Notes: generated by a model from the letters alone, not told the origin. A stretch of DNA of 64,000 nucleotides from Pseudomonadota bacterium (GCA_041694995.1 JBGFRS010000022.1:16996-80995); one strand, 5' to 3'. Positions 32,977 through 63,060 are shown, counted from the first letter of the stretch. Numbers and translations: made by a program.

Positions 32977-34101
32977 TTAAGGAGGCCAGGGCGCCTGCAT
33001 CGCAGCCCGTTTCCGCTCGATGATCTGCTGCGAGCTGCGCTCAAGGTAATAGGCGACGGTCTCCACCCGAATCTTGATCGAGCCCGCCGGCTTCGTCGAG
33101 TCCAGTTCCTGGAAGGAGAAGAAGAGTGTGCCGGAGCGCTCGACGATCTGTTGAACCGGCGTGAACGTCGGCTGATCCATGCCGCATTCGTAGCTGGTCA
33201 GCCGGATCGCGCAGCTGATCCACGGTACGCGGGCGGCGACCTTGGCGCCCCACAGGATCTCGTTGGTGTTGGCGCTGTAGGACGACGGCCAGACGTCGCT
33301 GACATCGAACGGCGAGCGGATGATACCGGCGCGGACTTCCTCGCCGAAGATCCACTCCATCAAATCGTCGTCGATCGGGAAGTATTGCATCCACAGGATC
33401 GGGTAGCCGTAGGCTTGGAGGTCAGCCTCGATCTCATGTCCGATGCCGGCGTCCATGTGGTAGGGGCGCGCCAGCACCATGATTGCCGGGCGGTCCTCGC
33501 GCGCGCACCATTCCAGCATCTTGCGGCTCTTGGCGCGGAGGGCGGCATTGAAGGCTCGCAGCGTCCGGTAGCCCTCCTGCACCGCCTCCCCGGTCTCCTC
33601 CGGGGTGAGACCGTCGAGCACGTCGGCGAGAGATTCGTAGAGCTGGCGCGGCACCAGTTTCGGCTCCGCCATGGTTACCAGCGGCGAGATGTGGCGGATG
33701 CCGTTTTCGGCGAAGACGTCCGTCTCCTTGATGAACCCGGCCTTGATGGTCTCAGGCGCGGCCATGACGCGCGGGCAGGCGAGGGAATCGGAGACATGGC
33801 CGAGCAAGAAGGAATCGAGGGAATAGATCATCGGCGAGAAGAGGATGTCGATCTTGCGCTTCTGGCCGAAGATGAGTTCGCCGTAGTGGCCGGCGCCGCA
33901 CTTCACCGGGTAGCAGCAGTCGACCGTGCCACGGCCGCGGCCGTATTCCCGCATCTGCTCCTCCGAGGTATCCCCGGAGAAGATGATGCGGTTGCTGGGG
34001 ACGCCGAGCGCGCTAAAGAAGCCAAGCCAGAATTGGTGCGTGGTCCAGATGTTGAGAAGCTTAGGGATGCCGATCCTGAGCTTGCTCCGCGCCTGCCGCA
34101 C
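32977..34101 (-). CDS. DUF2229 / acyl-CoA dehydratase-activase-related Fe-S protein (PlsA reductase-domain-like)
   Basis: RIGIPKLLN, DCCYPVK, SLACPRV, LARPYH and SYECGMD motifs; GTG 34101 preceded by GGAGAGG. Confidence 0.85.
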   Translation of the reverse strand: MRQARSKLRIGIPKLLNIWTTHQFWLGFFSALGVPSNRIIFSGDTSEEQMREYGRGRGTVDCCYPVKCGAGHYGELIFGQKRKIDILFSPMIYSLDSFLLGHVSDSLACPRVMAAPETIKAGFIKETDVFAENGIRHISPLVTMAEPKLVPRQLYESLADVLDGLTPEETGEAVQEGYRTLRAFNAALRAKSRKMLEWCAREDRPAIMVLARPYHMDAGIGHEIEADLQAYGYPILWMQYFPIDDDLMEWIFGEEVRAGIIRSPFDVSDVWPSSYSANTNEILWGAKVAARVPWISCAIRLTSYECGMDQPTFTPVQQIVERSGTLFFSFQELDSTKPAGSIKIRVETVAYYLERSSQQIIERKRAAMQAPWPP

Positions 34102-36283
34102 TGTCTGCCTCTCCGGCAAAAGCCCTGCGGAAGGCTTGGGCACGAACCATCTCGCCAATGTTTGGATAGGCACGCCGCCGCTCCTCTATGTCGGCTTTGA
34201 CCACCTTCATCTCGTTCACGTCCTCAAGCAGACCCTTGGGGCACGAGTTGCCGCTGATCACCCGCTCCCAGCCTTGCTCAACCGGAACCTTGCTCCATGG
34301 CCGCCCCTTGGCGCCGGGCAGTTCCACGTCGACAAAGGCACGCTTGCAGTTGACCGGGCACCAGCGGCAGATCGTCTTCTCACTGGTGGTGGTGCGGTAG
34401 TTCAACGCTTCGATGCGCTCGAAGCCGCGGAACTTGCTGGGCTTGTCCGGGGCCCAGGCTTCGAGCGCGCAGAGTGCCGCGCCGATGGCGCCGGCTTCGC
34501 CGGAATAGGGGTGGATCAGAACCTCCGCGTCCGGAACCTTGGCAGTGATGAAGTCAACCTGCGCCTTGACCACAGCGAGGTTGCGGTGGGTGCCGCCCTG
34601 GAGCACGAATCGCCGGCCGACGGCGCGGAGGTTCTGGAGCTGTCCGGCATAGATCCAGACGTTGAGCGGCAGCACGGCGGCGAGCGACGCCATGATTTCT
34701 CCCGCCGACCAGCCTTTGCGCTGCTGGTTGACGATGTCGGACTGGAGGAAGACGCCACAGCCCATGGCAAGCGCCGGCATCGCCTTCGCCTCGAACGCCT
34801 TGTCGGCATAATCCTCCAGCGGGATGCCGTAGCGCTCGGCAACCCCCTGAAGGAACGCGCCATTGCCCGACGAGCACTGCGAATTGAGCCGGAAGTCCGA
34901 CACCGTCCCCTGGCGCAGAATCATGATCTTCACGTCGGTTCCGCCGACGTCGCAGATCACGTCCGCCTCAGGGAACACGTGCAGCGCCGACTTGGCGTGG
35001 GCCACGGTCTCGACCACGCCGACATCGGTGCCGAGGATGTCCTTGAGCAGGTCCTTGCCGTAGCCGGTCAGTGCCAGCGCAGCAACCTCCCCAACGCCGC
35101 CGGCGCGGATGTCGCGGAACAGCGCCTTGGCATCCTCGACGGGATTGCCCTTTGACTGAACATAGGCGGAGTAGAGCAGCTCCTTGTCTTCGGAGAGCAC
35201 CACGGCCTTGACGGTGGTGCTGCCGAAATCGCACCCGACGAACAGGGGGCCGTCCAAGCGCTTGGACGTGCCAGTGCGGTTTGCTGGCGCACCGTTGGTC
35301 TTGCCGTCGACATAGCGGGCGCGGAAGTCGGAAAGGTCGTTGGTGCCGCGCACGAGCCCCTTGGCGCCGTTCTTCGCCTTCTCCTGATGCTGGCCTTCCT
35401 CGATCCACCAGGTCAGCCGCCCGGTGCCGACATAGCCGCCGACGCCGTGCGCCTCGCCCTTGCCGATCTCGATGCAGCCCAGCGCCGCGTAGTAGAGTGC
35501 GTCCTCCGGGACCTCGATGCACTCGGCGGGCGACTTGCCGTCCGGCAAGACCGCCTTGCGGTCGAGCCACAGTTTGGCGAGGTGGTGGCACCAAGCCTGC
35601 TGCAGGCCGGTGAAAAACAGGTTGGGCCCGCCGAGGAGAAGCACCTGCGGCGTCGGCGTGTTGCCTTTGGTGAGCGTCGCGAGGTTCTGGTAGACAACCG
35701 CCTCGAACAGGCTGGCGATGATCTCGTCCACTGGCACGCCGCCCTTGAGCAGCGTGTTGGCGTCAGTCTCGGCGAAAATCCCGCACTTGGAGCTGATCTT
35801 GTGGAGGCTCAAACCGTCGTAGGGCATCTTCGCCAGGTCTTCCGGCTTGATCCGGAGTTTACGCGCGGTCTTTTCGATGAAGGTGCCGGTGCCGCCGGAA
35901 CAGGCGGACTGCATGTAAACCTGTTTGGCCTTGCCGTTGGCCGACGGCTTCAGGAAGATTGTCTTCATATCTTCGCCGCCGATCTCGGAGACGAAGTTCA
36001 CGTTCGGGTGGAGCTTTTCCACCGCGGCGGCGACGGCGACCACTTCCTGTACAATCTTGCCGCCGACCAGCGGCCCGATCATCCCGGCGCCTGAGCCGGT
36101 GAAGAAGATGAGGTCTTTTCCGGCGGTGAAGCCGCTCTCCCGTTCGATCCGGCCGAGGAACTCGCGCACCATTTCGGCCTGTTTGGTGTTGTGACGCTGA
36201 TAGTCGCGCCACAGCACACGGTCGTCCTCGACGGCCAGCGCCTTAACCGTCGTCGAGCCGACGTCCATGCCGACAATCTTCAT
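34061..36283 (-). CDS. Tandem BadF/BadG/BcrA/BcrD ATPase (CoA-enzyme activase), PlsA activation-domain-like
   Basis: Two ASKHA modules: GMDVGSTTVK...EIGGEDMK...ACSGGTGTF...KCGIFAE and GCDFGSTTVK...DVGGTDVK...QCSSGNGAF...GCGVF; C-terminal CRWCPVNC...GNSC. Confidence 0.92.
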   Translation of the reverse strand: MKIVGMDVGSTTVKALAVEDDRVLWRDYQRHNTKQAEMVREFLGRIERESGFTAGKDLIFFTGSGAGMIGPLVGGKIVQEVVAVAAAVEKLHPNVNFVSEIGGEDMKTIFLKPSANGKAKQVYMQSACSGGTGTFIEKTARKLRIKPEDLAKMPYDGLSLHKISSKCGIFAETDANTLLKGGVPVDEIIASLFEAVVYQNLATLTKGNTPTPQVLLLGGPNLFFTGLQQAWCHHLAKLWLDRKAVLPDGKSPAECIEVPEDALYYAALGCIEIGKGEAHGVGGYVGTGRLTWWIEEGQHQEKAKNGAKGLVRGTNDLSDFRARYVDGKTNGAPANRTGTSKRLDGPLFVGCDFGSTTVKAVVLSEDKELLYSAYVQSKGNPVEDAKALFRDIRAGGVGEVAALALTGYGKDLLKDILGTDVGVVETVAHAKSALHVFPEADVICDVGGTDVKIMILRQGTVSDFRLNSQCSSGNGAFLQGVAERYGIPLEDYADKAFEAKAMPALAMGCGVFLQSDIVNQQRKGWSAGEIMASLAAVLPLNVWIYAGQLQNLRAVGRRFVLQGGTHRNLAVVKAQVDFITAKVPDAEVLIHPYSGEAGAIGAALCALEAWAPDKPSKFRGFERIEALNYRTTTSEKTICRWCPVNCKRAFVDVELPGAKGRPWSKVPVEQGWERVISGNSCPKGLLEDVNEMKVVKADIEERRRAYPNIGEMVRAQAFRRAFAGEADSAAGAEQAQDRHP

Positions 36284-37803
36284 GCCGCTCTCCGCTGCGA
36301 CTTCATCCCGGCGACGTGAATGAGGAAGTTGGCAGCGGTGCCAGCCACCCCTTCATGCGGCACACGATAGGTGGCGCGCTTCACGTGCGGGTTGGCGTCG
36401 GCGATCTTCTTGGCGTCCTCCGGCGTCAGCCCGGTTCGCTCCATCGCCTCGACATACTCGCGCACCGCCCGCTTTTTGGCCTCGGTCAGGATCATTTGGC
36501 AGCGCGACAGGGCGTGAATCTCGGCGTCGCCCTTGATTTCGATCGGCGCGTAGAGGAGGTCGGGGTACCTGCCGATGGCGCCCGCCATGGCCCCGATCGA
36601 CATGGTGTTGGGCATGCAGGCGTAGGGCGACAGTTCGCAGATCATGTGGGCGCGCTTATGCTTGTGGGCCCACAGCGCCTTGCCGACCAGCATGTCGCCC
36701 TCTCCCCCCGACAGGCGGTGGTGGAAGAAGGGCGCCGCCAGCTCGCGCAGTTCGTACTGGTCGGGGATGTCGTGGGGGATGTCGTTGAGCGCCGCGCGCA
36801 GGCGGTCATAGACCCAGCGGAAGGCCTTCTGGACCCCCTTCACCGCCGTGATCTTGGCGCCGGCGTAGCGATCGATCCCGCGATACTCCTCGAAGTTCTG
36901 AACGTAGAACCGCATCCAATAGTCGATCCACACCGCGATCGACGCAGGGTGGACCTCGGCGCCTTCGGCTTCGAGCCAACTGTGGATGTTGTAGTTGGGT
37001 TCGCCCTCGACGGTCTGCAGGTAGAATTCGCCAGTGATCTTGACCATCGGCTTGCACTGCAGCCGGTCGACCTCGATCGCGTCGAACTTCTTCTTCACTT
37101 CGCGCAGCGCATTCACGAAATAATCGGTGGAAAGGTGCCAGACGAGCGTGCCCCACTTCTTGCCCCGACGTGGCCGTTTGCGAAAGACCTCGCAGAGATA
37201 ATCGACGCTTTCCTCGACCGCGCGGTTGGTAGCACCTGCCTCCACCTCGTAGGGCCGCACCCGGTATTCGAGGCTCTGGAGCACGTCGGTGCACAGCACC
37301 GCCCACAGGCCGCCGAGCGTGAAGGTCATGTCGATCTTGAGCCCGCCGCCCTCCGGGGCACCCTGGTCCAGCTGGTCCTGGGCCATCAGGAACATGCGGA
37401 AATCCTCAAGTCCGAGGTTGCGCAGCGCCAGCTCGTAGCTCTGGTGGTACTGGCCGAAACGGCAGGCGCCGCAGGAGCCAGCGGTGATGTAGGCGAACTT
37501 CTTGGCAACGTTCTCTTTGCCGATCTTGTCGGACTGGTCGCGCAGGAAGTTGGCAAGGTTCCCGGCCGTGAAACTGGTCGGGCAGCACTGGCCGATATCG
37601 GCCAGTTCGCGGCCGGTGAGAAGATCGGCCTTGGTCGCCGGCGGCAGCGGCCGTGCCTTGTAGCCCAGGTTCTCGAACAGCGCCTGCAGCACCCGCTCAG
37701 CACGCCAATGCAATCCGCCGAACAGGATCTCGACCCCGCCGATCTCTGTCTTCGTCAATGGTTTGGGTCGGTAGGCGCGGTAGTGAGGCTGGGGCACGGG
37801 CAC
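36280..37803 (-). CDS. 2-hydroxyacyl-CoA dehydratase-like Fe-S protein (PlsR-like)
   Basis: GQCCPTSF, GSCGACRFGQY, RPYE, KITGEFY, GGEG and PYACMPN motifs; AAGGAGA SD before GTG. Confidence 0.85.
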   Translation of the reverse strand: MPVPQPHYRAYRPKPLTKTEIGGVEILFGGLHWRAERVLQALFENLGYKARPLPPATKADLLTGRELADIGQCCPTSFTAGNLANFLRDQSDKIGKENVAKKFAYITAGSCGACRFGQYHQSYELALRNLGLEDFRMFLMAQDQLDQGAPEGGGLKIDMTFTLGGLWAVLCTDVLQSLEYRVRPYEVEAGATNRAVEESVDYLCEVFRKRPRRGKKWGTLVWHLSTDYFVNALREVKKKFDAIEVDRLQCKPMVKITGEFYLQTVEGEPNYNIHSWLEAEGAEVHPASIAVWIDYWMRFYVQNFEEYRGIDRYAGAKITAVKGVQKAFRWVYDRLRAALNDIPHDIPDQYELRELAAPFFHHRLSGGEGDMLVGKALWAHKHKRAHMICELSPYACMPNTMSIGAMAGAIGRYPDLLYAPIEIKGDAEIHALSRCQMILTEAKKRAVREYVEAMERTGLTPEDAKKIADANPHVKRATYRVPHEGVAGTAANFLIHVAGMKSQRRAA

Positions 37804-37972
37804 GCGTATCTCCTTAGGTCGAAGCCACAGAGGAGTTTCAGCTAAGGTTGCATTCTATGCTGGAATTCGCAACCGGCGGTCCGGTTTGGGCCAACAACGC
37901 CATGCCTTCGTCAGTAAAGTCGCCCGACACGATCGCATCATGCGAGACACGGCATGCGCCACCTGAGCTTCT

Positions 37973-43799: not shown

Positions 43800-44585
43800 A
43801 TGAAAGACGCAGGTCTCCAACAGGCGATCGAAGCGGCCGGTGGGGTGGGTGCCCTGGCGCGGGCCTTGGGCATTTCGCAGCCCTCCGTTTCCAATTGGTC
43901 CAAGGTTCCGGCCGAGCGCGTCGCCGCGGTGGAGGGGGTGACCGGCGTGTCCCGCGCTGTGCTGCGGCCTGATCTTTATGCGGATAACCCGATCATCGTG
44001 CCGCCACGCCCGGTCGATGAGGTCGACGCGGTCCGCGCGCAGCACTACCTCCTGCTCGCCAAGCTCCTGCGCCAAGCGCCGGATGCGGACGTCCTCGAGC
44101 GGCTCACTGGCCTCAAGGGGGATTCGACCGAGTTCGGCATGGCGCTGATCGCGCTGGCGGATGCCGCTGCAGCCGCGCGCGCCGATGCCGTCGGCAATGA
44201 ATTCTTCGCCGTGTTCATCGGCGTCGGCCGGGGCGAGGTTCTGCCCTACGGCTCGTATTACATGTCCGGCTTTCTGCACGAGCGGCCGCTGGCCCGCGTG
44301 CGCGAGGATCTGATCCGGCTCGGCATTGCGCGGGCCGATGGCGATTACGAACCGGAAGACCACATCGCGACGCTGTTCGAAGTGATGGCCGGCCTCATCG
44401 ATGGCACCTTCGATGCGGAGGCTGCCGAGCAGAAGAGGTTCTTCGACCGTCACCTGAAGCCCTGGGCAGGGCGCTTCTTCGTGGACGTCGAGATCAGCAA
44501 GCAGGCGGTGTTCTACAAGGCGGTAGCCGCCGTGGGACGCCTATTCGTGGAGATCGAGGCGGAGGCGTTCTCGATCGGATCATGA
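43800..44585 (+). CDS. Cro/YdaS-type HTH fused to a TorD/DmsD-family molybdoenzyme chaperone
   Basis: N-terminal AIEAAGGVGALARALGISQPSVSNW..VPAER..LRPDLY; C-terminal PYGSYY, EPEDHIA and FFDRHLKPW. Confidence 0.9.
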   Translation: MKDAGLQQAIEAAGGVGALARALGISQPSVSNWSKVPAERVAAVEGVTGVSRAVLRPDLYADNPIIVPPRPVDEVDAVRAQHYLLLAKLLRQAPDADVLERLTGLKGDSTEFGMALIALADAAAAARADAVGNEFFAVFIGVGRGEVLPYGSYYMSGFLHERPLARVREDLIRLGIARADGDYEPEDHIATLFEVMAGLIDGTFDAEAAEQKRFFDRHLKPWAGRFFVDVEISKQAVFYKAVAAVGRLFVEIEAEAFSIGS

Positions 44586-52781: not shown

Positions 52782-54725
52782 ATGAGCCATATCGATCCGA
52801 CCACCCTGCCTTGGTTGCCGCGTCCGAGCGCCGACGACAGGGCGGCGCTCGAAAGATGGCGCGGCGCGGATGGCGCCGGGTTGGCGGCGCTGTCGGATCT
52901 GTCGCGCCGCGCCTGGGACGAAGCGGGCCTGCGCCGGCTCGCACATCGGCTCCGCAAGGCGGTTACGGCCGTTGGCGGCCGCGGGCGGGCGGCATCGACA
53001 TTGGGCCATGTGCCGCTCAAGCTCCTGATCCTCTCGGCGCGTACCATTGCGCACCTCGCCCCTCTGGTTCAGGCAAGCGCCCTTCGCCATGGCCTGGTGC
53101 TCGACGTCGGCGTCCGCGAAGGGGCCTTGGCGTTTGCCCATCCCGAGGTTTTCCTGCGGGATGACCGCCCCGATGCCGTTCTCCTGCTGTTCGCCGTCGA
53201 CGATTTGGCCGCCGGCGGTCAGCTGGGGGATGCCGCAGAGGCGTCGGCCGCCGTGACCGCCGCGGTCGATCGGCTGGAACGCCTCGCCACGGCCATTCGG
53301 TCCGCCGCGCCGATGGCGAGACTCTTGGTCGCGACCTCGCCGGCCGATGCGTCCCAATCGCAGCTGAGCGCAGATATCTCCTTGCCAGGGAGTCCGCGCC
53401 AGCGGTCCGCCGCGTTCGATCACCTGGTCGCCGCACGGTCCGTTGATGCCGGATGGATCGTGTTTGATGTCGCGGGCATTGCCGCACTCGTGGGAGCAGC
53501 CCGCTGGCATCCCGGCCGCTTGGGATTTCTCGCGAACCAGGCGTTCGCGCCGCTCGCCGGTCCGCTCGTGGCCGATCGGCTTGCGACCGTCCTCGCTGCT
53601 CTTTCCGGCCGCTCCCGCCGCGCCTTGGTGCTCGATCTCGACGACACGTTGTGGGGCGGCCTGGTCGGGGAGGAGGGCGGGGCGGCTCTGGCCATGAGCG
53701 CGGGCGATCCCCGCGGCGAAGCACATCGGGCCGTGCAGGCCTTCGCGCGCGACATGGGGCGTCGCGGGGTTCTGCTTGCCATCGCCTCGAAGAACGATCC
53801 GCACGGCGCGCGAGAGGTCTTCCGCACCCATCCCGACATGCTCCTGCGCGACGCCGATATTGCAGTCTTCGAGATCGGGTGGGGGTCCAAGCCGGACATG
53901 CTCCGCCGCATCGCGCAGGAAGTGCGGCTCGGCCTGGAGGCTTTCGTCTTCATCGACGACCAGCCGGCCGAACGGCACGAAATGCGGATGGGGTTGCCCG
54001 AAGTCGCCATTCCCGAGCTTCCGCCCGACCCCGCGGACTGGCTTCCCGTCATTCAGGCCGCCGCCTATTTCGAGACGATCGGCCTCACCCAGGAGGATCG
54101 GGCGCGCGCCACAATGCAGCAGGCCGACAATGCGCGCGCGCAAGCCGCTCGCCTTGCGCCCGACCGCCGGGCATTCCTGGCCTCGCTCGACATGGTCGTC
54201 ACCATCACCCCGTTCGAGCGCATCAGCCGCCCCCGCATTGCTCAGCTCTTGGCGAAGTCGAATCAGTTCAACCTCACGACGCGCCGGTACCCGGACGCCG
54301 AGATCGCACGTTTGGCGATGGACAAGGACGTCTTCACGGCGCAGGTGCGGCTGGTCGACCGATTCGGGGACAATGGCATCGTCTCTGCCGTTATCTGTCG
54401 GCGTGCGCCGTCCGTGTGGGACATCGACACGTGGGTCATGTCCTGCCGTGTCCTCGGCCGAGGCATCGAAGAGAGAATCCTGGACCACCTTGTGCATGCC
54501 GCGCGCGCGGCGGGAGCGACGATGTTGACCGGGACATATCTGCCGACGCCTCGGAATGGGCTTGTCGCCGATCTCTACAGGCGACTCGGCTTCGCGCTGT
54601 CGGCGGCCGCCGCGGACGGCACCACGACATGGCACCTGACGATCGCGCCTCATCCTGAGCGTCCCGGGAAGCCGAGCATCTCGCGCGTATCCCCGCCGGT
54701 CGAAGAATCTAGCCTGAACGGCTGA
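52782..54725 (+). CDS. FkbH-like HAD-IIIC phosphatase/glyceryl transferase
   Basis: LDLDDTLWGG, ASKND, FIDDQPAE, KSNQFNLT, DRFGDNG and MSCRVLGR motifs. Confidence 0.92.
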   Translation: MSHIDPTTLPWLPRPSADDRAALERWRGADGAGLAALSDLSRRAWDEAGLRRLAHRLRKAVTAVGGRGRAASTLGHVPLKLLILSARTIAHLAPLVQASALRHGLVLDVGVREGALAFAHPEVFLRDDRPDAVLLLFAVDDLAAGGQLGDAAEASAAVTAAVDRLERLATAIRSAAPMARLLVATSPADASQSQLSADISLPGSPRQRSAAFDHLVAARSVDAGWIVFDVAGIAALVGAARWHPGRLGFLANQAFAPLAGPLVADRLATVLAALSGRSRRALVLDLDDTLWGGLVGEEGGAALAMSAGDPRGEAHRAVQAFARDMGRRGVLLAIASKNDPHGAREVFRTHPDMLLRDADIAVFEIGWGSKPDMLRRIAQEVRLGLEAFVFIDDQPAERHEMRMGLPEVAIPELPPDPADWLPVIQAAAYFETIGLTQEDRARATMQQADNARAQAARLAPDRRAFLASLDMVVTITPFERISRPRIAQLLAKSNQFNLTTRRYPDAEIARLAMDKDVFTAQVRLVDRFGDNGIVSAVICRRAPSVWDIDTWVMSCRVLGRGIEERILDHLVHAARAAGATMLTGTYLPTPRNGLVADLYRRLGFALSAAAADGTTTWHLTIAPHPERPGKPSISRVSPPVEESSLNG

Positions 54726-54733
54726 CAGCTCCC

Positions 54734-56164
54734 ATGACATCATCTCCACCACCTTCGCTGGCGCACGTCGTTCCCGTCATCATCGGCGGCGGCGCCGGTT
54801 CGCGGCTCTGGCCCGCCTCCCGCGAATCCTTCCCGAAGCAGTTCATCCCGCTCTTCGGGGAGCGCTCGATGTTCCAGAAGACGCTGGAGCGCGTTCGCGA
54901 CTGTGGGCTCAGAGACCCCGTCATCGTCACCCACGAGGAGTTCCGCTTCAGCGTGCGCCGGCAGATGGACAGCGTCGGCGTATCGGGCGCCATCCTCTTG
55001 GAACCCGTCCGCCGCGACTCCGGTCCCGCCATCGCTGCCGCCGCGCGGTTCGTTCAGACGCGCGCCGCGGATGCTCTGGTGCTGGTCTTGGCGTCCGACC
55101 ATCTCATCACCGATCTCGACGCGTTCCGTTCTGCCGTCGCGCGCGCCGCAGCGGCGGCAGCGACCGGCCGCATCGTTACGTTCGGCATGATCCCGGACCG
55201 GCCGCACACCGGGTATGGCTACGTCAAGCCGGGGGCGGGGCTGCACGATGGCGTGCATGCGGCCGAGCGTTTCGTTGAAAAGCCTGATGCGCCGACGGCC
55301 GCGCGGTACATCGCGGAGGGGTATCTGTGGAACAGCGGCATGTTCCTGTTCCGCGCAGATGCGTTTCTTGCGGAACTCGGCCGTCTTGCGCCGACCATGG
55401 CCGAATCGGCGTCCCGCGCGGTCATGCTTGCGCGTCCGGATTTCGACTTCATCCGCCTCGATGCCGGCGCTTTTGCGCAGGCGCCTAAAGTGTCCATCGA
55501 CCATGCCGTGATGGAGAAGACGACGATGGCTGCCGTCGTCCGTGCGGCGTTCGGCTGGTCCGATGTCGGATCCTGGGCGGCGGTTTGGGCAGCTTCGACG
55601 CGCGATACCAACGGCAATTCGACGCGCGGTGACGTCGAAGTGCTCGACAGCAGAAATTGCCACGTTCAGTCGGCTGGCCCGCTCACGGTGGTCATCGGCA
55701 TGAGCGATGCTGTCGTCGTGGTCGAGGACGACGCCGTCATGGTTGCCTCCCGCGACATGTCCGAGAAGGTCAAGCCCGTCGTCGAAAAACTGAAGCAACA
55801 AGGCCACGCGGCCGCGACGCGGTCGCGTCGGACGCAGCGGCCCTGGGGCTATTATCACACGCTCGACCTCGGAAAACGATATCAGGTCAAACGCATCGTC
55901 GTCGATCCGGGCGCGCGCTTGTCGCTGCAGAGCCATGCGCATCGCGCCGAGCACTGGGTGGTTGTGTCGGGCGCGGCGGTGGTGACGGTCGACGGCCAAG
56001 AACGATGCCTGATGGAGAACGAGTCGGCCTTCATTCCCCGCGGGGCGGTTCATCGGTTGGCAAACCCGGGCAAGGTACCGCTCGAATTGATCGAGGTTCA
56101 GTCCGGCGCCTATCTCGGCGAAGACGACATCGTTCGCTACGAGGACGCCTACAAGCGCGTCTGA
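54734..56164 (+). CDS. manC: Mannose-1-phosphate guanylyltransferase / mannose-6-phosphate isomerase
   Basis: GGAGSRLWPASR..PKQF, FVEKP, WSDVGSW, RPWG and SLQSHAHRAEHW motifs. Confidence 0.95.
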   Translation: MTSSPPPSLAHVVPVIIGGGAGSRLWPASRESFPKQFIPLFGERSMFQKTLERVRDCGLRDPVIVTHEEFRFSVRRQMDSVGVSGAILLEPVRRDSGPAIAAAARFVQTRAADALVLVLASDHLITDLDAFRSAVARAAAAAATGRIVTFGMIPDRPHTGYGYVKPGAGLHDGVHAAERFVEKPDAPTAARYIAEGYLWNSGMFLFRADAFLAELGRLAPTMAESASRAVMLARPDFDFIRLDAGAFAQAPKVSIDHAVMEKTTMAAVVRAAFGWSDVGSWAAVWAASTRDTNGNSTRGDVEVLDSRNCHVQSAGPLTVVIGMSDAVVVVEDDAVMVASRDMSEKVKPVVEKLKQQGHAAATRSRRTQRPWGYYHTLDLGKRYQVKRIVVDPGARLSLQSHAHRAEHWVVVSGAAVVTVDGQERCLMENESAFIPRGAVHRLANPGKVPLELIEVQSGAYLGEDDIVRYEDAYKRV

Positions 56165-56224
56165 TATAGCTCAGATCTGGCGTGGCATCCGATGGGTGCG
56201 GTCCGGCAGCATCACGAGGGATGA

Positions 56225-57211
56225 ATGACGGTGTTGGTGACAGGCGGTGCGGGCTATATCGGCTCGCACATGGTCTATGCGCTTCTCGATCGCGGGGAGC
56301 GTGTCGTCGTTCTCGACAATCTGTCGACCGGGTTTCGCTGGGCGGTGCCGGACGGTGTGCCCCTCATCGTCGCGGACGCCGGAGACATCGAAACAGTCTT
56401 GCCCGCCCTGCATACCCATGGCGTCGAATCGGTCGTGCACTTTGCCGCGAAGATCGTCGTGCCGGAATCGGTGGCCGATCCGCTCGGCTATTACCTGAAC
56501 AACACCGTCAAGAGCCGCGCACTCATCGCCGCGGCCATTGGCGCAGGCGTGCGCCATTTCATCTTCTCGTCGACCGCGGCCGTGTACGGCGACCCGGCAG
56601 TCAGCCCCGTGCCGGAAGACTGCGCCGTGTCGCCGATGTCGCCGTACGGCGCGTCGAAGCTGATGACCGAAACCATGCTGCGCGACGTCGCCGTCGCGCA
56701 CGGACTTGGCACGGTCATCTTGCGCTACTTCAACGTTGCCGGTGCCGACCCCAAGGGCCGCACCGGCCAGTCGACGCCCGCCGCGACGCATCTGATCAAG
56801 GTCGCCGTGCAAAGCGCCCTCGGCCTGCGCTCCGGCATGCACATCTACGGCACCGACTATCCGACGGCGGATGGCACATGCGTCCGCGACTATATCCATG
56901 TGACCGATCTGGTGCGGGCGCATGTGGATGCCCTCGATTATCTGCGGCGCGGCGGCGAACTGCTCACCTGCAATGTCGGTTATGGGCGCGGCTACTCGGT
57001 TCGCGAGGTCGTGGATACGGTTCGCGCCGTTTCGGGGGTTGCTTTCAGGGCCGACATCGCACCGCGCCGCGCCGGTGACCCGGCCTCGATCGTCGCAGCC
57101 AATGACCGCGCCAAGCGCGCGCTCGGCTGGCGTCCGGAGATCGAGGATCTCGCCACCATCGTCGAGCATGCGTTGCGCTGGGAACGGCGGCTGCACCAAC
57201 GCGGTGTCTGA
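56225..57211 (+). CDS. galE: UDP-glucose 4-epimerase
   Basis: TGGAGYIGSH, SSTAAVYG, YGASK, RYFNVAGA and DGTCVRDYIHV motifs. Confidence 0.96.
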   Translation: MTVLVTGGAGYIGSHMVYALLDRGERVVVLDNLSTGFRWAVPDGVPLIVADAGDIETVLPALHTHGVESVVHFAAKIVVPESVADPLGYYLNNTVKSRALIAAAIGAGVRHFIFSSTAAVYGDPAVSPVPEDCAVSPMSPYGASKLMTETMLRDVAVAHGLGTVILRYFNVAGADPKGRTGQSTPAATHLIKVAVQSALGLRSGMHIYGTDYPTADGTCVRDYIHVTDLVRAHVDALDYLRRGGELLTCNVGYGRGYSVREVVDTVRAVSGVAFRADIAPRRAGDPASIVAANDRAKRALGWRPEIEDLATIVEHALRWERRLHQRGV

Positions 57212-57292
57212 GCGGGCCCGCGATGGGCACTTGCGCGCTCCCCCGCCGATGCTATTCCTGCGGCCACTCTTGCTTGGAAAGGTCCTCCGCGC

Positions 57293-58618
57293 ATGCGCAT
57301 CGCCATGGTCGGCGCCGGCTATGTCGGTCTCGTCTCAGGCGTTTGCTTTTCCGACTTCGGTCATGACGTTGTCTGTGTCGACACCGACGGCGCCAAGATC
57401 GAAGCGCTGCAGCGCGGCGAGGTGCCGATCTATGAACCGGGTCTCGAGGCCCTGGTGCGCGCCAATATGCGCGACGAGCGCCTTGCCTTCACGACCAGCC
57501 TGGAACAGGCCGTGCGCGGCGCACAGGCGATCTTCATCGCGGTTGGAACGCCGTCGCGCCGCGGCGACGGGCATGCCGACTTGTCCTATGTGCACAAGGC
57601 CGCGCGGGACATCGCCGCCCTGGCTGATGGCTTCACGGTCGTCGTGACCAAGTCGACCGTGCCGGTGGGGACGGGAGACGAGGTCGAACGCATCATCCGG
57701 TCCGTGCGGCCGGACGCCGACGTAGCCGTCGTGTCGAACCCGGAGTTCCTGCGGGAAGGCGCGGCAATCGGCGATTTCAAGCGCCCTGATCGGATCGTGA
57801 TCGGAACCGACGACGAACGGGCCCGGCGCGTCATGTCGGACATCTATCGGCCCCTGCACATCAACCAGGGGCCGCTGGTCTTCACCTCCCGGCGCACGGC
57901 GGAACTGATCAAATACGCCGCCAACGCCTTCCTCGCGATGAAGGTCACCTTCATCAACGAAATGGCCGATCTGTGCGAGGCCGTCGGCAGCAATGTGCAG
58001 GAGGTGGCCCGTGGGATCGGGCTCGACAACCGCATCGGCCCGAAGTTCTTGCATGCGGGCCCGGGGTATGGCGGGTCGTGCTTTCCGAAGGACACGCTCG
58101 CCCTCGTCAAGACGGCGCAGGATGTCGGCGCTCCAACACGGCTGATTGAGACCGTGATCGCGGTCAATGATCGGCGCAAGCATGCCATGGTGCACAAGAT
58201 CATCCGTGCGTGCGGCGGCACCGTCGCGGACAAGCGCGTGGCGGTCCTCGGCCTGGCGTTCAAGCCGAACACCGACGATCTGCGCGAGGCCCCGGCGCTG
58301 GTGATCGTTCCGGCTTTGCAAGAGGCGGGCGCAACCGTGACCGCCCACGACCCCGAGGCCATGAAGAATGCGGCGGAATTCTTGCCGAACGTCGCATTCG
58401 CTGAATCGGCCTATGGCTGCGCCAAGGGCGCGGACGCGCTGGTTATCTTGACCGAGTGGGACGTGTTTCGCGCGCTCGACATGACGCGCATCCGCCGGCT
58501 GATGCGGACGCCGACCGTCGTGGATCTCCGCAACGTCTATCGCATCGACGAGATGCGGGCGCTCGGCTTCACCTATGTGAGCATCGGGCGCGCGTCGGTT
58601 CAGGGCGAATCGCGATGA
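57293..58618 (+). CDS. ugd: UDP-glucose 6-dehydrogenase
   Basis: GAGYVGL, SNPEFLREG, GYGGSCFPKD and AFKPNTDD motifs. Confidence 0.96.
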   Translation: MRIAMVGAGYVGLVSGVCFSDFGHDVVCVDTDGAKIEALQRGEVPIYEPGLEALVRANMRDERLAFTTSLEQAVRGAQAIFIAVGTPSRRGDGHADLSYVHKAARDIAALADGFTVVVTKSTVPVGTGDEVERIIRSVRPDADVAVVSNPEFLREGAAIGDFKRPDRIVIGTDDERARRVMSDIYRPLHINQGPLVFTSRRTAELIKYAANAFLAMKVTFINEMADLCEAVGSNVQEVARGIGLDNRIGPKFLHAGPGYGGSCFPKDTLALVKTAQDVGAPTRLIETVIAVNDRRKHAMVHKIIRACGGTVADKRVAVLGLAFKPNTDDLREAPALVIVPALQEAGATVTAHDPEAMKNAAEFLPNVAFAESAYGCAKGADALVILTEWDVFRALDMTRIRRLMRTPTVVDLRNVYRIDEMRALGFTYVSIGRASVQGESR

Positions 58619-59640
58619 CGGAGCCAGCGCCCGGCCCGGTTCTCGTGACGGGCGCTGCCGGCTTCATCGGCTTCCACCTCGCTGAGCACCTGTTGCGGTC
58701 CGGCGTCAGCGTCGTCGGCATCGACAGCATGACTGACTACTATGATCCGGCGCTCAAGGAAGCGCGTCTCGCGCAGCTGAGCCGACGCGAGGAATTCTCC
58801 TTCGAACGGCTTGACGTTCGGGAGTTCGAGGCTTTCGGCGCGCTGGTCGCACGGGTGCGGCCGCGTGCGCTCGTCCACTTGGCCGCGCAAGCCGGCGTGC
58901 GCTATTCGCTCGATGCGCCGCGATCCTATACCTCGACGAATGTCGAAGGCTTCCTGTCCGTCCTCGAGGCGTGCCGGCACACGCCCGTTGGCCACCTCGT
59001 CTACGCCTCGTCGAGCTCGGTGTACGGGCTCAACACCAAGACGCCGTTCTCGGAGCACGACGGCGCCGACCATCCGGTCTCGCTCTATGCCGCGACCAAG
59101 CGGGCGAACGAATTGATGGCGCATGCCTATGCCCATCTCTACGGAATTGCCGCAAGCGGGCTGCGCTTCTTCACCGTCTACGGACCGTGGGGGCGCCCTG
59201 ACATGGCCTATTTCAAATTCACCAAGGCCATTCTCGAAAACCGCCCGATCGAGGTCCATGCCCCGGACGTCATGCGGCGGGACTTCACCTATATCGACGA
59301 CATCGTGGAAGGCATCGCCAGGCTGCTCCCCCGCCCCCCATCGCCGGACCCGCACTTCGACCGCCGGCGTCCGGACCCCGCCACTGCCGCCGCGCCGCAC
59401 CGCATTTTCAACATCGGCAACAACGCGCCGGTCGACCTTCGCCGTTTCATCGCGGCCATCGAGGCGGCCGCCGGGCGGCGCGCCACCTGCGTCGTGACGC
59501 CACTGCAGCCGGGCGATGTCGAGGCGACCTGCGCCGACGTGACCGATCTTGCGGCCGCCGTCGGCTTTGCGCCGTCAACCTCGATCGAGGCGGGCATCGG
59601 CCGTTTTGTCGCGTGGTATCGTGACTTCTACGCGATTTGA
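58615..59640 (+). CDS. UDP-glucuronate 4-epimerase-like NAD-dependent epimerase
   Basis: TGAAGFIG, HLAAQAGVRYS, SLYAATK and RFFTVYGPWGRPDMA motifs. Confidence 0.93.
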   Translation: MTEPAPGPVLVTGAAGFIGFHLAEHLLRSGVSVVGIDSMTDYYDPALKEARLAQLSRREEFSFERLDVREFEAFGALVARVRPRALVHLAAQAGVRYSLDAPRSYTSTNVEGFLSVLEACRHTPVGHLVYASSSSVYGLNTKTPFSEHDGADHPVSLYAATKRANELMAHAYAHLYGIAASGLRFFTVYGPWGRPDMAYFKFTKAILENRPIEVHAPDVMRRDFTYIDDIVEGIARLLPRPPSPDPHFDRRRPDPATAAAPHRIFNIGNNAPVDLRRFIAAIEAAAGRRATCVVTPLQPGDVEATCADVTDLAAAVGFAPSTSIEAGIGRFVAWYRDFYAI

Positions 59641-59683
59641 GGCCGCGGCAGGTTCTATCCGTCGGCGCGATCGGACGAGGCGC

Positions 59684-59809
59684 TCACAGGCGAACGGCTG
59701 AGGTGGTGAACGCGGTTTCCACCGGCTTCTGGGCCATGCGGTCGAGGGTCAGCCACGCGCCAACCCCGAGGACTGCTGCCACGCCGACGGCCAATAGGAA
59801 CGCCTTCAT
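59684..59809 (-). CDS. 41-aa single-TM small protein (below ORF-track cutoff)
   Basis: MKAFLLAVGVAAVLGVGAWLTLDRMAQKPVETAFTTSAVRL*; strong AAGGAGGGAG SD; downstream of mrp. Confidence 0.75.
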   Translation of the reverse strand: MKAFLLAVGVAAVLGVGAWLTLDRMAQKPVETAFTTSAVRL

Positions 59810-59887
59810 CGATCTCCCTCCTTCATAGATGTTTGCGCGCGACCTTGGCGTAGCACGCCCCCATCGCGCAAGAGGTGCGCTGTCGCA

Positions 59888-60988
59888 TCAAATCGGAACG
59901 GCACGGCGCTTCGGGGGGGATTGGCCCGCGGGATCGGCAAGCGCGGCCCAGACCCGATCCGCGATCTCAAAATAGGCCTGAGCGTGCGCTCCGTCCGGAT
60001 CGGAAGCAACAGACGGCGCGCCGGCGTCCGCGCTCGCGCGGATGTGCATGTGCAGGGGGATCTCCCCGAGGAACGCGGTCCCGTGCCTGCCCGCCTCCGC
60101 CCGCGCGCCGCCATGCGAGAAGATGTTGCAGCGAAATCCGCAGGTCGGGCACACGAAGAAGGACATGTTCTCGACGATCCCGAGAACCGGGACGTTCACC
60201 TTCTGGAACATGGCGATGCCCTTGCGCGCATCGATGAGGGCGAGGTCTTGCGGGGTGGACACGATCACGGCGCCGTCGAGCGGCACTTTCTGGGCCATGG
60301 TGAGCTGCGCGTCCCCCGTCCCCGGGGGCATGTCGACCACCAGGACGTCGAGATGGCCCCAGGCAACCTCGCGCAGCATCTGCGTCAAGGCCGAATCGAT
60401 CATCGGTCCGCGCCAGATCAGCGGCGTTTCGTCATCGACCATCAGCCCGATCGACATGATCTTGAGGCCGTGGGCCTCGAGCGGCTTCAGCATGCGCCCG
60501 GGCAGAAGCTCGGGCCTGCCTTTGACGCCCATGAGCTTGGGCACGGACGGCCCGTAAATGTCGGCATCGAGCAGGCCCGCGCTTCGCCCACGTCTTGCCA
60601 GCGCAATCGCGAGATTCGCCGCCGTGGTCGATTTGCCGACCCCGCCCTTGCCGGATGCGACGGCGACAATGCGGGCGATGCCGGGCACCGGCGCGGCATG
60701 CGGTGCCGGCGCCTTGGCCTGCGGTGCCCCGGCGCCGGACGCGCTCCGCTCGGCCGTCAGCGTCACGAACGCCTTGCTCACCCCGGGCACGGCCCGGATC
60801 GCCCGCTCGACCGCTTGCCGGGTCGGCTCGAACGCGGCGGCTTCGCTCGCCTCGATGGTCAAGGCGAGCATGACCGTATCGCCAGCGATCACGACCTCGC
60901 CCAGGCGCCCGGCCTCCGCGAGCCGGCGCCCGCTGGGGTCAGTCAGGGCGGCGAGGGCGCCAAGAATGGTGTCGGCGGTGAGCGCCAT
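59888..60988 (-). CDS. mrp: Mrp/ApbC (NBP35-family) Fe-S carrier ATPase
   Basis: ASGKGGVGKST, DADIYGPS, WRGPM, DMPPGTGD and ENMS..CPTCG motifs. Confidence 0.95.
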   Translation of the reverse strand: MALTADTILGALAALTDPSGRRLAEAGRLGEVVIAGDTVMLALTIEASEAAAFEPTRQAVERAIRAVPGVSKAFVTLTAERSASGAGAPQAKAPAPHAAPVPGIARIVAVASGKGGVGKSTTAANLAIALARRGRSAGLLDADIYGPSVPKLMGVKGRPELLPGRMLKPLEAHGLKIMSIGLMVDDETPLIWRGPMIDSALTQMLREVAWGHLDVLVVDMPPGTGDAQLTMAQKVPLDGAVIVSTPQDLALIDARKGIAMFQKVNVPVLGIVENMSFFVCPTCGFRCNIFSHGGARAEAGRHGTAFLGEIPLHMHIRASADAGAPSVASDPDGAHAQAYFEIADRVWAALADPAGQSPPKRRAVPI

Positions 60989-61143
60989 GCGTCGAACAGG
61001 CCCGCTTGGTGAGGAACGGCACAAATGTCACATTTTCCGCTCCTGTGCACCTGCTGCGGTGCCGCGCGTGGTGCGCGGAGCAGGATGGGGCTATAAAGCG
61101 CGGCTGACCTGTGCCACCGGGGCTTTGGACGCGGACCATCGCC

Positions 61144-63060
61144 GTGCAAGCGATCAACCCACGTAAGGTTCTGATCATCATCCACGATGTGGTGATGACG
61201 GCGGCGGCTGTGCTCGTCAGCTTCTTCGTCCGCTTCGAAGAGCGGGGCCTCGCCGAGCGCTGGGACGATCTCCTCGTCTTCCTGCCGGTCTTCGTCGTCT
61301 ACGCAGCCATCGTCTATCACCTCTTCCACCTCTATCGCGCGAAGTGGCGCTTCGCGTCGCTGCCGGACCTGTTCAACATCTTTCGGGCCGTGACGGTTCT
61401 GACGTTCACACTGGTCGTCCTCGACTATGTGCTCGCGTCCTCTGCCTTCTACGGCGCGCTCCTGTTCGGCAAGATCACCATCGGCCTGTATTTCCTGCTG
61501 CAGATCGCCTTCCTGGGCGGACCGCGGCTTGCCTATCGCTACTACCGCTATTGGCGCACCCGCACGCACGCGCGGGCGCAGCACGCCGCCGCGGTCCTTC
61601 TGATCGGTCGCGCGACGGACGCAGACGTCTTCCTGCGCGCGATCGAAAGCGGCGCCGTGCAGAAGGTCTGGCCGGTCGGCATTCTGTCGGACGCGCCGTC
61701 CGACCGTGGCCAGTCCGTGCGCGGCGTGCCCGTGCTCGGCCGGCTGGCGCAGCTCGACAGCGTCCTCGCCGACAGTGGCGCGGGGCCGTCGCGGCCGGTC
61801 CGGCTCATCTGCCTCCCGTCCGCGTTCGAAAGCGAAGGCGCGCTCGACGGTGTGCTGACGCGCGCGCGGCAATTGGGGCTCGCGGTCAACCGGCTGCCGT
61901 CCCTGGACGGGCGCACGCTGGACGGCCACACGCTGCGCCTTGCGCCGGTCGACGTCGAAGACCTGATGCTGCGCCCCCGCGTCGACGTCGACCACGCCCG
62001 CTTGAAGGCTTTCGCCGCGGGCCGCGCGGCCATCGTCACCGGCGGCGGCGGCTCGATCGGGGCCGAGATCTGCGACCGTCTCGTGTCGTTCGGCGTGGCG
62101 CGCCTCCTGGTCCTTGACAACAGCGAGCCGGCCCTGCACGCCGTTCTGGAGCGTCTCGGTGCCGCGCGTGGCGATGTGGCCGTCACAGGCCGGATCGCCG
62201 ATGTGCGCGACCGGGAGCGCATCCACAAGCTGTTCTACGAGTTCGCTCCGGATCTCGTGTTTCATGCCGCCGCGCTCAAGCACGTGCCCATTCTCGAGAC
62301 CGATTGGCAGGAGGGGGTGAAGACGAACGTCTTCGGCTCGGTCAATGTCTGTGACGCCGCGATCGCGGCCGGCGCGGCGGTTCTGGTGGTGGTGTCGACC
62401 GACAAGGCCATCGAGCCGGTGTCGATCCTCGGCGCGACCAAGCGCCTCTCCGAGATCTATGCGCAAGCCCATGATCGCGAGGTCGCGGCGGCCAAGGGCG
62501 CCGGCCCGCGCACGCGCCTCATCTCTGTTCGCTTCGGCAATGTCCTCGCCTCGTCGGGCTCGGTCGTCCCGAAGTTCAAGGCGCAGATTGCCGCCGGCGG
62601 CCCGGTGACGGTGACGCATCCGGACATGGTGCGCTTCTTCATGACCGTCCGCGAGGCGTGCGACCTCGTCATCACCGCCGCTTCGCACGCCAGCGAGGGT
62701 ATCGTGCCGCCGGTGTCCGTCTACGTTTTGAACATGGGCCAGCCGGTCCGTATTCTTGATGTGGCTGAGCGCATGATCCGCCTGGCGGGGCTTGAGCCGG
62801 GCAAGGACATCGAGATCGCCTTCACCGGCGTGCGGCCCGGCGAGCGCCTGAACGAGATCCTGTTCTCCGCCGAGGAGTCGAGCCGGAACATCGGCGTGCC
62901 CGGCATCGTGGCGGCGTTGACGGGTGCGCCGAGCCTCGCCGTGGTCAGGGGCTGGCTCGCCGAACTTGAGAAAGCCGTCGCCAGCGATGACCGCGACCGT
63001 GCCGAGGCCTTGCTGCGCAGCGCGGTTCCGGGGTTCCGCGGTGACCGCGCCGCGGCGTGA
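61144..63060 (+). CDS. CapD/PglF/WbpM-family UDP-GlcNAc 4,6-dehydratase with N-terminal TMs
   Basis: TGGGGSIG, HAAALKHVP, STDKA, RFGNVLASSGSV and RPGERLNE motifs. Confidence 0.94.
   Translation: MQAINPRKVLIIIHDVVMTAAAVLVSFFVRFEERGLAERWDDLLVFLPVFVVYAAIVYHLFHLYRAKWRFASLPDLFNIFRAVTVLTFTLVVLDYVLASSAFYGALLFGKITIGLYFLLQIAFLGGPRLAYRYYRYWRTRTHARAQHAAAVLLIGRATDADVFLRAIESGAVQKVWPVGILSDAPSDRGQSVRGVPVLGRLAQLDSVLADSGAGPSRPVRLICLPSAFESEGALDGVLTRARQLGLAVNRLPSLDGRTLDGHTLRLAPVDVEDLMLRPRVDVDHARLKAFAAGRAAIVTGGGGSIGAEICDRLVSFGVARLLVLDNSEPALHAVLERLGAARGDVAVTGRIADVRDRERIHKLFYEFAPDLVFHAAALKHVPILETDWQEGVKTNVFGSVNVCDAAIAAGAAVLVVVSTDKAIEPVSILGATKRLSEIYAQAHDREVAAAKGAGPRTRLISVRFGNVLASSGSVVPKFKAQIAAGGPVTVTHPDMVRFFMTVREACDLVITAASHASEGIVPPVSVYVLNMGQPVRILDVAERMIRLAGLEPGKDIEIAFTGVRPGERLNEILFSAEESSRNIGVPGIVAALTGAPSLAVVRGWLAELEKAVASDDRDRAEALLRSAVPGFRGDRAAA

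Follow-up and report, generated by a model that had tools for sequence, protein, structure and literature searches.

What would an alphaproteobacterium do with three overlapping genes whose products together carry the domain set of an ether-lipid enzyme? The question is raised by a locus in a stretch of 64,000 nt from a Pseudomonadota bacterium (GCA_041694995.1), which was analysed over its whole length and is called the window. The genes encode a putative reductase/dehydratase subunit (R), a tandem activase (A) and a DUF2229 protein (D), and had been described in an initial annotation as an anaerobic plasmalogen or ether-lipid synthase cluster of the PlsA/PlsR (Ger) type. Judging from sequence comparison, their most likely role is that of an ATP-driven Fe-S reductase converting ester bonds of membrane lipids into ether bonds.

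The operon and its host

The tightly coupled minus-strand operon that had been annotated, with R followed by the tandem activase and the DUF2229 gene, was recovered at the same positions, with overlaps of 4 nt (ATGA) between R and A and 113 nt between A and D (Table 1). The operon is real and intact, since its three ORFs keep all conserved Cys, the starts and the Shine-Dalgarno sequences, and its GC content is that of the window. Contigs of three sequencing runs from three studies, one of them possibly the source sample, crossed the A/D junction without indels. A sequencing or assembly error at this junction is ruled out by the indel-free contigs of several runs together with the conserved relatives. 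Contigs also link the operon to both flanks, with rluA on one side and a ferredoxin-like gene on the other, and a strain of run X1 carries an ATG where R starts, by way of a one-base insertion. The runs sharing the most words with the operon were groundwater metagenomes, and no RNA run was present among the sequencing runs listed as sharing words with it.

Table 1. Features of the operon, in positions of the window.
Feature	Position	Strand	Description
R	36280..37803	minus	putative PlsR-like reductase/dehydratase subunit, 507 aa
A	34061..36283	minus	tandem ASKHA (BadF/BadG/BcrA/BcrD) activase, 740 aa
D	32977..34173	minus	DUF2229 (PF09989) putative reductase subunit, 398 aa, HAD/BCR/DCCP-like predicted fold
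Shine-Dalgarno-like AAGGAG of R	37810..37815	minus	6 nt 5' of R's GTG start
Shine-Dalgarno GAGGAG of D	34181..34186	minus	sits in two Glu codons of A
A/D overlap, dual-coding, 113 nt	34061..34173	minus	D in the +1 frame of A, from GTG 34173
C639-x2-C642-x3-C646...C681 motif of A	34241..34369	minus	downstream of second ATPase domain; in 8/8 PlsA-type references
A residues 705-725, predicted docking segment on D	34109..34171	minus	entirely within the overlap

The alphaproteobacterial host that had been proposed was accepted because the flanking genes fit, TIGR02924 (ICDH_alpha) being matched above its cut-off. Within the window the operon has rluA and a formate dehydrogenase cluster as neighbours, with no lipid genes. 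In the formate dehydrogenase cluster, a Cro/YdaS-like helix-turn-helix is fused to a TorD-like (Nitrate_red_del) chaperone (43800-44585), and positions 52782-63060 are taken up by a polysaccharide cluster encoding an FkbH-domain protein, a GMP-PMI, a UDP-glucose dehydrogenase and a dehydratase. The host genome (67% complete) encodes a single heme-copper oxidase subunit, four molybdopterin oxidoreductases and five Crp/Fnr regulators that exceed the cut-off. A molybdopterin oxidoreductase in a 1260-aa frame (G000:C32:21258-23426) is of the size known from a respiratory nitrate reductase subunit. No FNR box with fewer than two mismatches was found in 52 upstream regions, and in the search for PF10520 (CarF/PEDS1) the controls gave no match.

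DUF2229 was not found in 400 further genomes of the host's order, among them those of two congeners that are 98-100% complete, and both operon flanks have other neighbours in the congeners. Within the host's class, 5 of 400 genomes gave a DUF2229 match, in every case in ORFs of 968-1444 aa. Horizontal gain is the simplest reading.

Family placement, relatives and gene neighbours

In a profile search, two PF01869 stretches were found in A, which scored above the cut-off of TIGR00241 and far below the BcrA/BcrD equivalog cut-offs. This protein has two ATP-binding motifs and the cluster Cys C128, C167, C470 and C509, and carries GGTD where the references have GGQD. The separate gene D has a Pfam match to PF09989, with C87, C133 and C330 conserved. 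R had no Pfam or NCBIfam match, but it resembled the reductase part at the C-terminus of PlsA-type proteins, with E-values from 2e-15 to 3e-29; PF06050 was found neither in R, nor in D, nor in the host genome at its 67% completeness. When 7-9 annotated PlsA/PlsR-type homologues were compared, eight Cys of A, three of D and three of R aligned with Cys of every reference, and C73, C114 and C396 of R did so in 7/7 reference PlsR-type regions. The further Cys C74, C389 and C435 of R are invariant in the clade of the operon, in which seven Cys of R are unchanged across 54 members versus the three common to all PlsR-type references. The extra invariant Cys are possibly additional cluster ligands.

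The 11 best structural matches of the D model (pLDDT 89) were HAD, BCR and DCCP chains (E 3e-5 to 7e-4, 10-14% identity); the same families ranked first for the R model (pLDDT 79), but with E-values of 3e-3 or weaker. Solved HgdC/Bcr activases matched a single domain of A only (best E 2e-24), and no meaningful PDB sequence match was obtained for D or R. With eight annotated plasmid-collection records as references, A, D and R corresponded to consecutive parts of single-chain PlsA-type proteins. The identities to a 1475-aa Listeria protein were 30, 24 and 23% for A, D and R (E 1e-92, 3e-24 and 2e-17, respectively), and those to a Brevibacillus pair were 41, 38 and 33%. Natural single-chain fusions were found in both orders, R-A-D (P0556) and A-D-R (P0587). 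In a further protein of 1271 aa (P0575) the R homologue is fused to an FAD/Fe-S oxidoreductase, which could hint at the electron donor in some lineages.

Two trees were calculated from collected homologues, among which the validated enzymes of C. perfringens, E. faecalis, L. cremoris, T. maritima and D. alkenivorans do not figure. In the activase tree, for which the second activase domain was aligned (82 rows out of 142, with a single long row omitted), the split clade had a support of 100/99 and was sister to fused A-D proteins (100/100); both together were sister to the Listeria/Fusobacterium/Collinsella-type PlsA (100/96), and all DUF2229-linked rows were separate from 16 single-domain activases (100/100). 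The same groups were obtained for D in a tree of 60 out of 127 rows that was rooted at the midpoint. The stem of the split clade is long, with 0.92 changes per column. Forcing split and single-domain activases together was rejected with a p-AU of 5e-6 (42 rows, eight long-branch loci left out). A grouping with the Hgd/Bcr enzymes, which the initial annotation had named as a refutation, is thus rejected for the rows used. Because domain set, cysteines and the two trees agree, membership of the operon in the PlsA/Ger family, the central claim of the initial annotation, is supported.

A relative is encoded in 190 GTDB stretches. The best 80 of these 190, all of them MAGs with taxa as recorded, comprised 43 Rokubacteria/Methylomirabilota, 9 Alpha-, 7 Beta- and 4 Gammaproteobacteria, 6 unplaced proteobacteria and 11 others, and among them the three-gene form was present in at least 10 phylum- or class-level groups. 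The R-A-D layout is kept wherever contigs permit, at about 60-80% identity, and the split form makes up one conserved clade. A split-type D was found in 27 of the 81 genomes of a Methylomirabilota sample, including the carrier used as its centre. Caldovatus sediminis is the only cultured carrier named, and no paper on the lipids of Caldovatus or Falsiroseomonas was among the matches listed in a literature search. One acidobacterial genome (G401) encodes both a split-type D and a fused PlsA-type protein of 1032 aa (L119 and L124).

A set-up peculiar to this organism is not supported in view of this spread, and alphaproteobacterial homologues are already in print. The Ger homologues given in the accessible part of PMC13159169 include those of alpha-Proteobacteria and Ca. 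Sulfopaludibacter, Aquifex is entered there with a stand-alone BB architecture, and PlsA/PlsR homologues of Acetobacteraceae, Rhodobacteraceae and Burkholderiaceae are reported in that of PMC13023045. No description of the three-gene clade or its overlap was found in the literature searched, and "Rokubacteria" had no mention in the part of it that was screened for the name; members may be listed by Jackson et al. (2021) and by Chen et al. (2025). The family and its alphaproteobacterial homologues are already known, and the split three-gene clade is a conserved variant of PlsA/Ger that is rare in the host's order.

Among long proteins, D has its closest relatives in fused A-D chains, the named ones mostly acidobacterial; identities to the acidobacterial relatives were 46% for A, 42-45% for D and 32-38% for R. 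All four Bryobacteraceae-type sister proteins scanned had Pfam bounds of 353-621 and 771-1003, and the same domain bounds are printed for Acid_0922 of S. usitatus (Fig. S10, accessible part of PMC10087280). This domain-coordinate fingerprint, taken from the text of a figure that no longer had its columns in order and compared without the Acid_0922 sequence, suggests that the sister clade corresponds to Acid_0922. According to the same part of PMC10087280, Acid_0922/Acid_0921 is the proposed PlsAR/Ger homologue, and S. usitatus produces alkyl ethers (mono-, di- and tetraethers) whether O2 is high or low; Table S21 of PMC13159169, as far as accessible, has no Ger homologue entered for S. usitatus. 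R comes first in eight of ten sister loci and last in two, so that this order is inherited and derives from the sister group. The difference from the clostridial form that had been pointed out is therefore valid as regards the separation of A and D, while the R-first order, though correctly noted, is common to the fused sister. In two of the ten sister loci, R and the fused A-D gene are separated by a radical SAM gene (L205:9748-11169 and L206:8895-10187).

Gene neighbours were scanned for 50 hand-picked genes of 245, without a background rate, and the only widely recurring one was an acyl-ACP-desaturase-like diiron gene directly upstream of R (31/81 loci, e.g. L076:5678-6499), for the most part within a single lineage and in Rokubacteria. 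Its nearest Atlas clusters have PF03405 in 16-42% of members; of five members scanned for PF03405, one was above the cut-off, one was below and three had no match at 1e-5. Acyl-ACP desaturases of this type usually need O2, and here the gene adjoins an Fe-S reductase. A fatty acid desaturase and a fatty acid hydroxylase were next to the operon in four loci of one proteobacterial lineage (L016, L018, L019 and L088). Other lipid genes were confined to single lineages (GDPD in two loci, CDP-alcohol transferase in two and acyltransferase in one), and MaoC and PhaC were single cases. No CoA-transferase, ligase or aromatic-degradation gene recurred among the neighbour clusters.

The overlap between the activase and DUF2229 genes

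Eighty-one A/D junctions were examined and 73 were parsed by pattern; the other eight comprised truncated contigs, a frameshifted assembly and motif variants, and the +1 frame is seen in four of these. In all 73, counts that overstate independence since the loci are kin, D lies in the +1 frame of A, its start codon is at one fixed place (GTG in 68; ATG in 5, altering A's residue) and GGAG or GAGG stands upstream of it. The length of the overlap ranges from 56 to 113 nt. The N-terminus of D reads MPIQTLARWF here, with L6, W9 and F10 conserved (L-x-x-W-F): residue 6 was Leu in 69/73, residue 9 was Trp in 70 and Leu in 3, and residue 10 was Phe in all. The Val codon after that Phe was GTT in 73/73, versus 99 of the 3811 Val codons elsewhere in A, and GTT-CGN is invariant inside the overlap. 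Among 464 conserved four-fold columns of the three genes, only two were fixed on an A/T-ending codon, both of them in the overlap.

In one sub-branch (L207-L210, four of five further loci), D is read in the +2 frame from a start that lies 16 nt ahead of A's stop, and begins with M-F/L-G-F/L-L-K/R-K/R (MFGLLKK type). The codon constraint in the overlap tracks the reading frame of D, because the Val codon is GTC in 4/4 of these loci. The comparison of junctions shows that D has its own predicted translation start inside A and that the split involves no frameshift. No conserved hairpin over GAR-NTG-GTT-C and no consensus structure were obtained with RNAalifold, and no covariation beyond shuffles was detected at the junction. 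A named 5-pair helix was rejected, as it was no better than shuffles (185-500 of 500 on four measures; 150 of 500 for pair types).

The +1-type N-terminus of D has a helical hydrophobic moment at the median 93rd percentile of its protein and a median charge of +3 (67 proteins), whereas the moment of the +2-type (MFGLLKK) N-terminus is not high (25th-53rd percentile). An aromatic residue at a like place was found in 108 of 116 fused linkers. The model of a complex between A340-740 and D reached an ipSAE of 0.90, the best of three controls being 0.00; the mark applied is passed by 116/157 solved and 2/215 mismatched pairs. Runs shared at least 76% of contacts, the partner pLDDT was at least 86, and the overlapped stretch of A, residues 705-725, was placed at the core of the A-D interface. 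Because fused relatives were present in both alignments (23/77 and 44/85 rows), the model shows likeness to the fused contact rather than binding. The overlap is dual-coding, for the predicted docking helix of A and the conserved N-terminus of D.

Proposed function and comparison with known systems

In the proposed mechanism, R, A and D would assemble as an ATP-driven Fe-S reductase, with the complete PlsA/Ger domain set in three proteins, and would turn the acyl ester at the sn-1 position of membrane phospholipids into an ether. The steps of electron flow draw on the general electron-transfer chemistry of BCR and HAD and on the PlsA/PlsR model. A would carry a [4Fe-4S] cluster, placed between the two ATPase domains, and would hand single low-potential electrons to the clusters of D and R when ATP is hydrolysed. 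Two reductions, with protonation and loss of water, would yield a vinyl ether, from which an alkyl ether would form if reduction went further. The C-terminal segment of A is predicted to dock on D in place of the covalent linker of the fused relatives, and the hydrophobic, basic N-terminus of D may help to keep the complex at the membrane. Activity under low O2 would be expected from the family only, and one PlsA functions in air (PMC12838417, accessible part).

Sequence cannot decide between a vinyl and an alkyl ether product, according to the accessible part of PMC13274423. The tree neighbour past the sister clade is the Listeria-type PlsA, and the nearest lipid data are alkyl ethers. An alkyl ether, quite possible and tentatively preferred, is favoured over a plasmalogen, a rather unlikely product, since alkyl mono- and diethers are produced by the closest organism for which lipids have been analysed. 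Ger homologues are not always paired with ether lipids, and two expressed homologues gave none (PMC13159169, accessible part).

An ATP-driven radical enzyme of the same family could also act on another substrate, dehydrating or reducing a soluble acyl-CoA or acyl-ACP thioester or attacking another membrane component. The folds of D and R are closest to hydroxyacyl-CoA dehydratases, benzoyl-CoA reductases and DCCP, yet at only 10-14% identity versus 23-46% to PlsA-type proteins, and the trees nest the operon inside the DUF2229-linked family. A change of substrate is possible because of the long stem (0.92) and the clade's own substitutions, the Cys of R and the GGTD of A, and the very high conservation across phyla (60-80%) could be read likewise. 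The acyl-ACP-desaturase-like neighbour could hint at acyl-ACP chemistry, and the single MaoC and PhaC genes point in the same direction, but CoA-transferase, ligase and aromatic-degradation genes do not recur in the neighbourhood. Another substrate is considered unlikely.

Translation of A and D as one PlsA-like chain, through a programmed +1 ribosomal frameshift in the overlap, would suit the constant +1 frame of D, the invariant GTT-CGN and the fusion of both parts in relatives. It is ruled out by D's own start and Shine-Dalgarno, conserved in 73/73, and by the four loci with a downstream start in the +2 frame, where GTT is relaxed to GTC; as neither consensus RNA structure nor covariation speaks for it, its probability is taken as negligible. 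The operon might instead be a cassette that this organism gained recently and that is silent or decaying, as it was not found in the two congeners or the 400 genomes of the order and the flanks differ. This is very improbable, since all ORFs are intact with every conserved Cys, start and Shine-Dalgarno, the GC content equals that of the window and the intact form recurs in several runs. The ester-to-ether reductase is thus retained as the preferred reading.

For the clade as a whole, a fuller interpretation is conceivable although doubtful: an ether-bond former of Rokubacteria and scattered Proteobacteria, sister to the candidate Solibacter enzyme, active in O2-respiring soil and groundwater bacteria and born by gene fission, when a new start in the activase gene overprinted a membrane-binding N-terminus on the docking helix. 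If this were true, about a third of the sampled Methylomirabilota genomes would belong to overlooked bacterial ether-lipid producers. Where the bacterial ether lipids of soils, lakes and aquifers come from, brGDGT climate proxies among them, is an open question, and in S. usitatus, the best producer in culture, the ester-to-ether step is only proposed. Caldovatus sediminis is now supplied as a cultured carrier and Rokubacteria as candidates, and searches requiring a full-length, high-coverage Ger match would overlook or truncate the split form. The three-protein form would offer smaller, separately expressible parts of an enzyme reported mostly in inclusion bodies on expression (PMC13159169, accessible part). 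Moreover, the overlap may serve as a clean example of gene fission with dual coding, with the +2-frame loci as a natural control.

Among the known systems, HgdABC, class I benzoyl-CoA reductase and DCCP:DCCP-R share the fold families and have a separate activase and an alpha/beta-type reductase pair, but D and R are only 10-14% identical to them, and their activases are single-domain, lack a DUF2229 partner and form a separate clade. Ger (T. maritima Tmari_0479 and D. alkenivorans), compared by the architecture described in the accessible part of PMC13159169, is one chain, whereas here there are three, without PF06050 in R; the BBD set of alkyl-ether producers is present across A and D. PlsA/PlsR of C. 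perfringens and the single-gene forms of E. faecalis, L. cremoris and Listeria have in common with the operon two activation and two reduction/dehydration domains and, as compared with annotated homologues, the linker Cys motif and all conserved Cys. In PlsA/PlsR as described, activation and the first reduction domain are in one chain, whereas here A and D are separate overlapping genes, with only 23-31% identity, R first and extra Cys in R. Closest are Solibacter Acid_0922/Acid_0921 and the Bryobacteraceae-type proteins, the latter being the sister clade in both trees, which are like the operon in their Cys and mostly R-first order and differ in having A and D as one chain of about 1190 aa instead of two genes.
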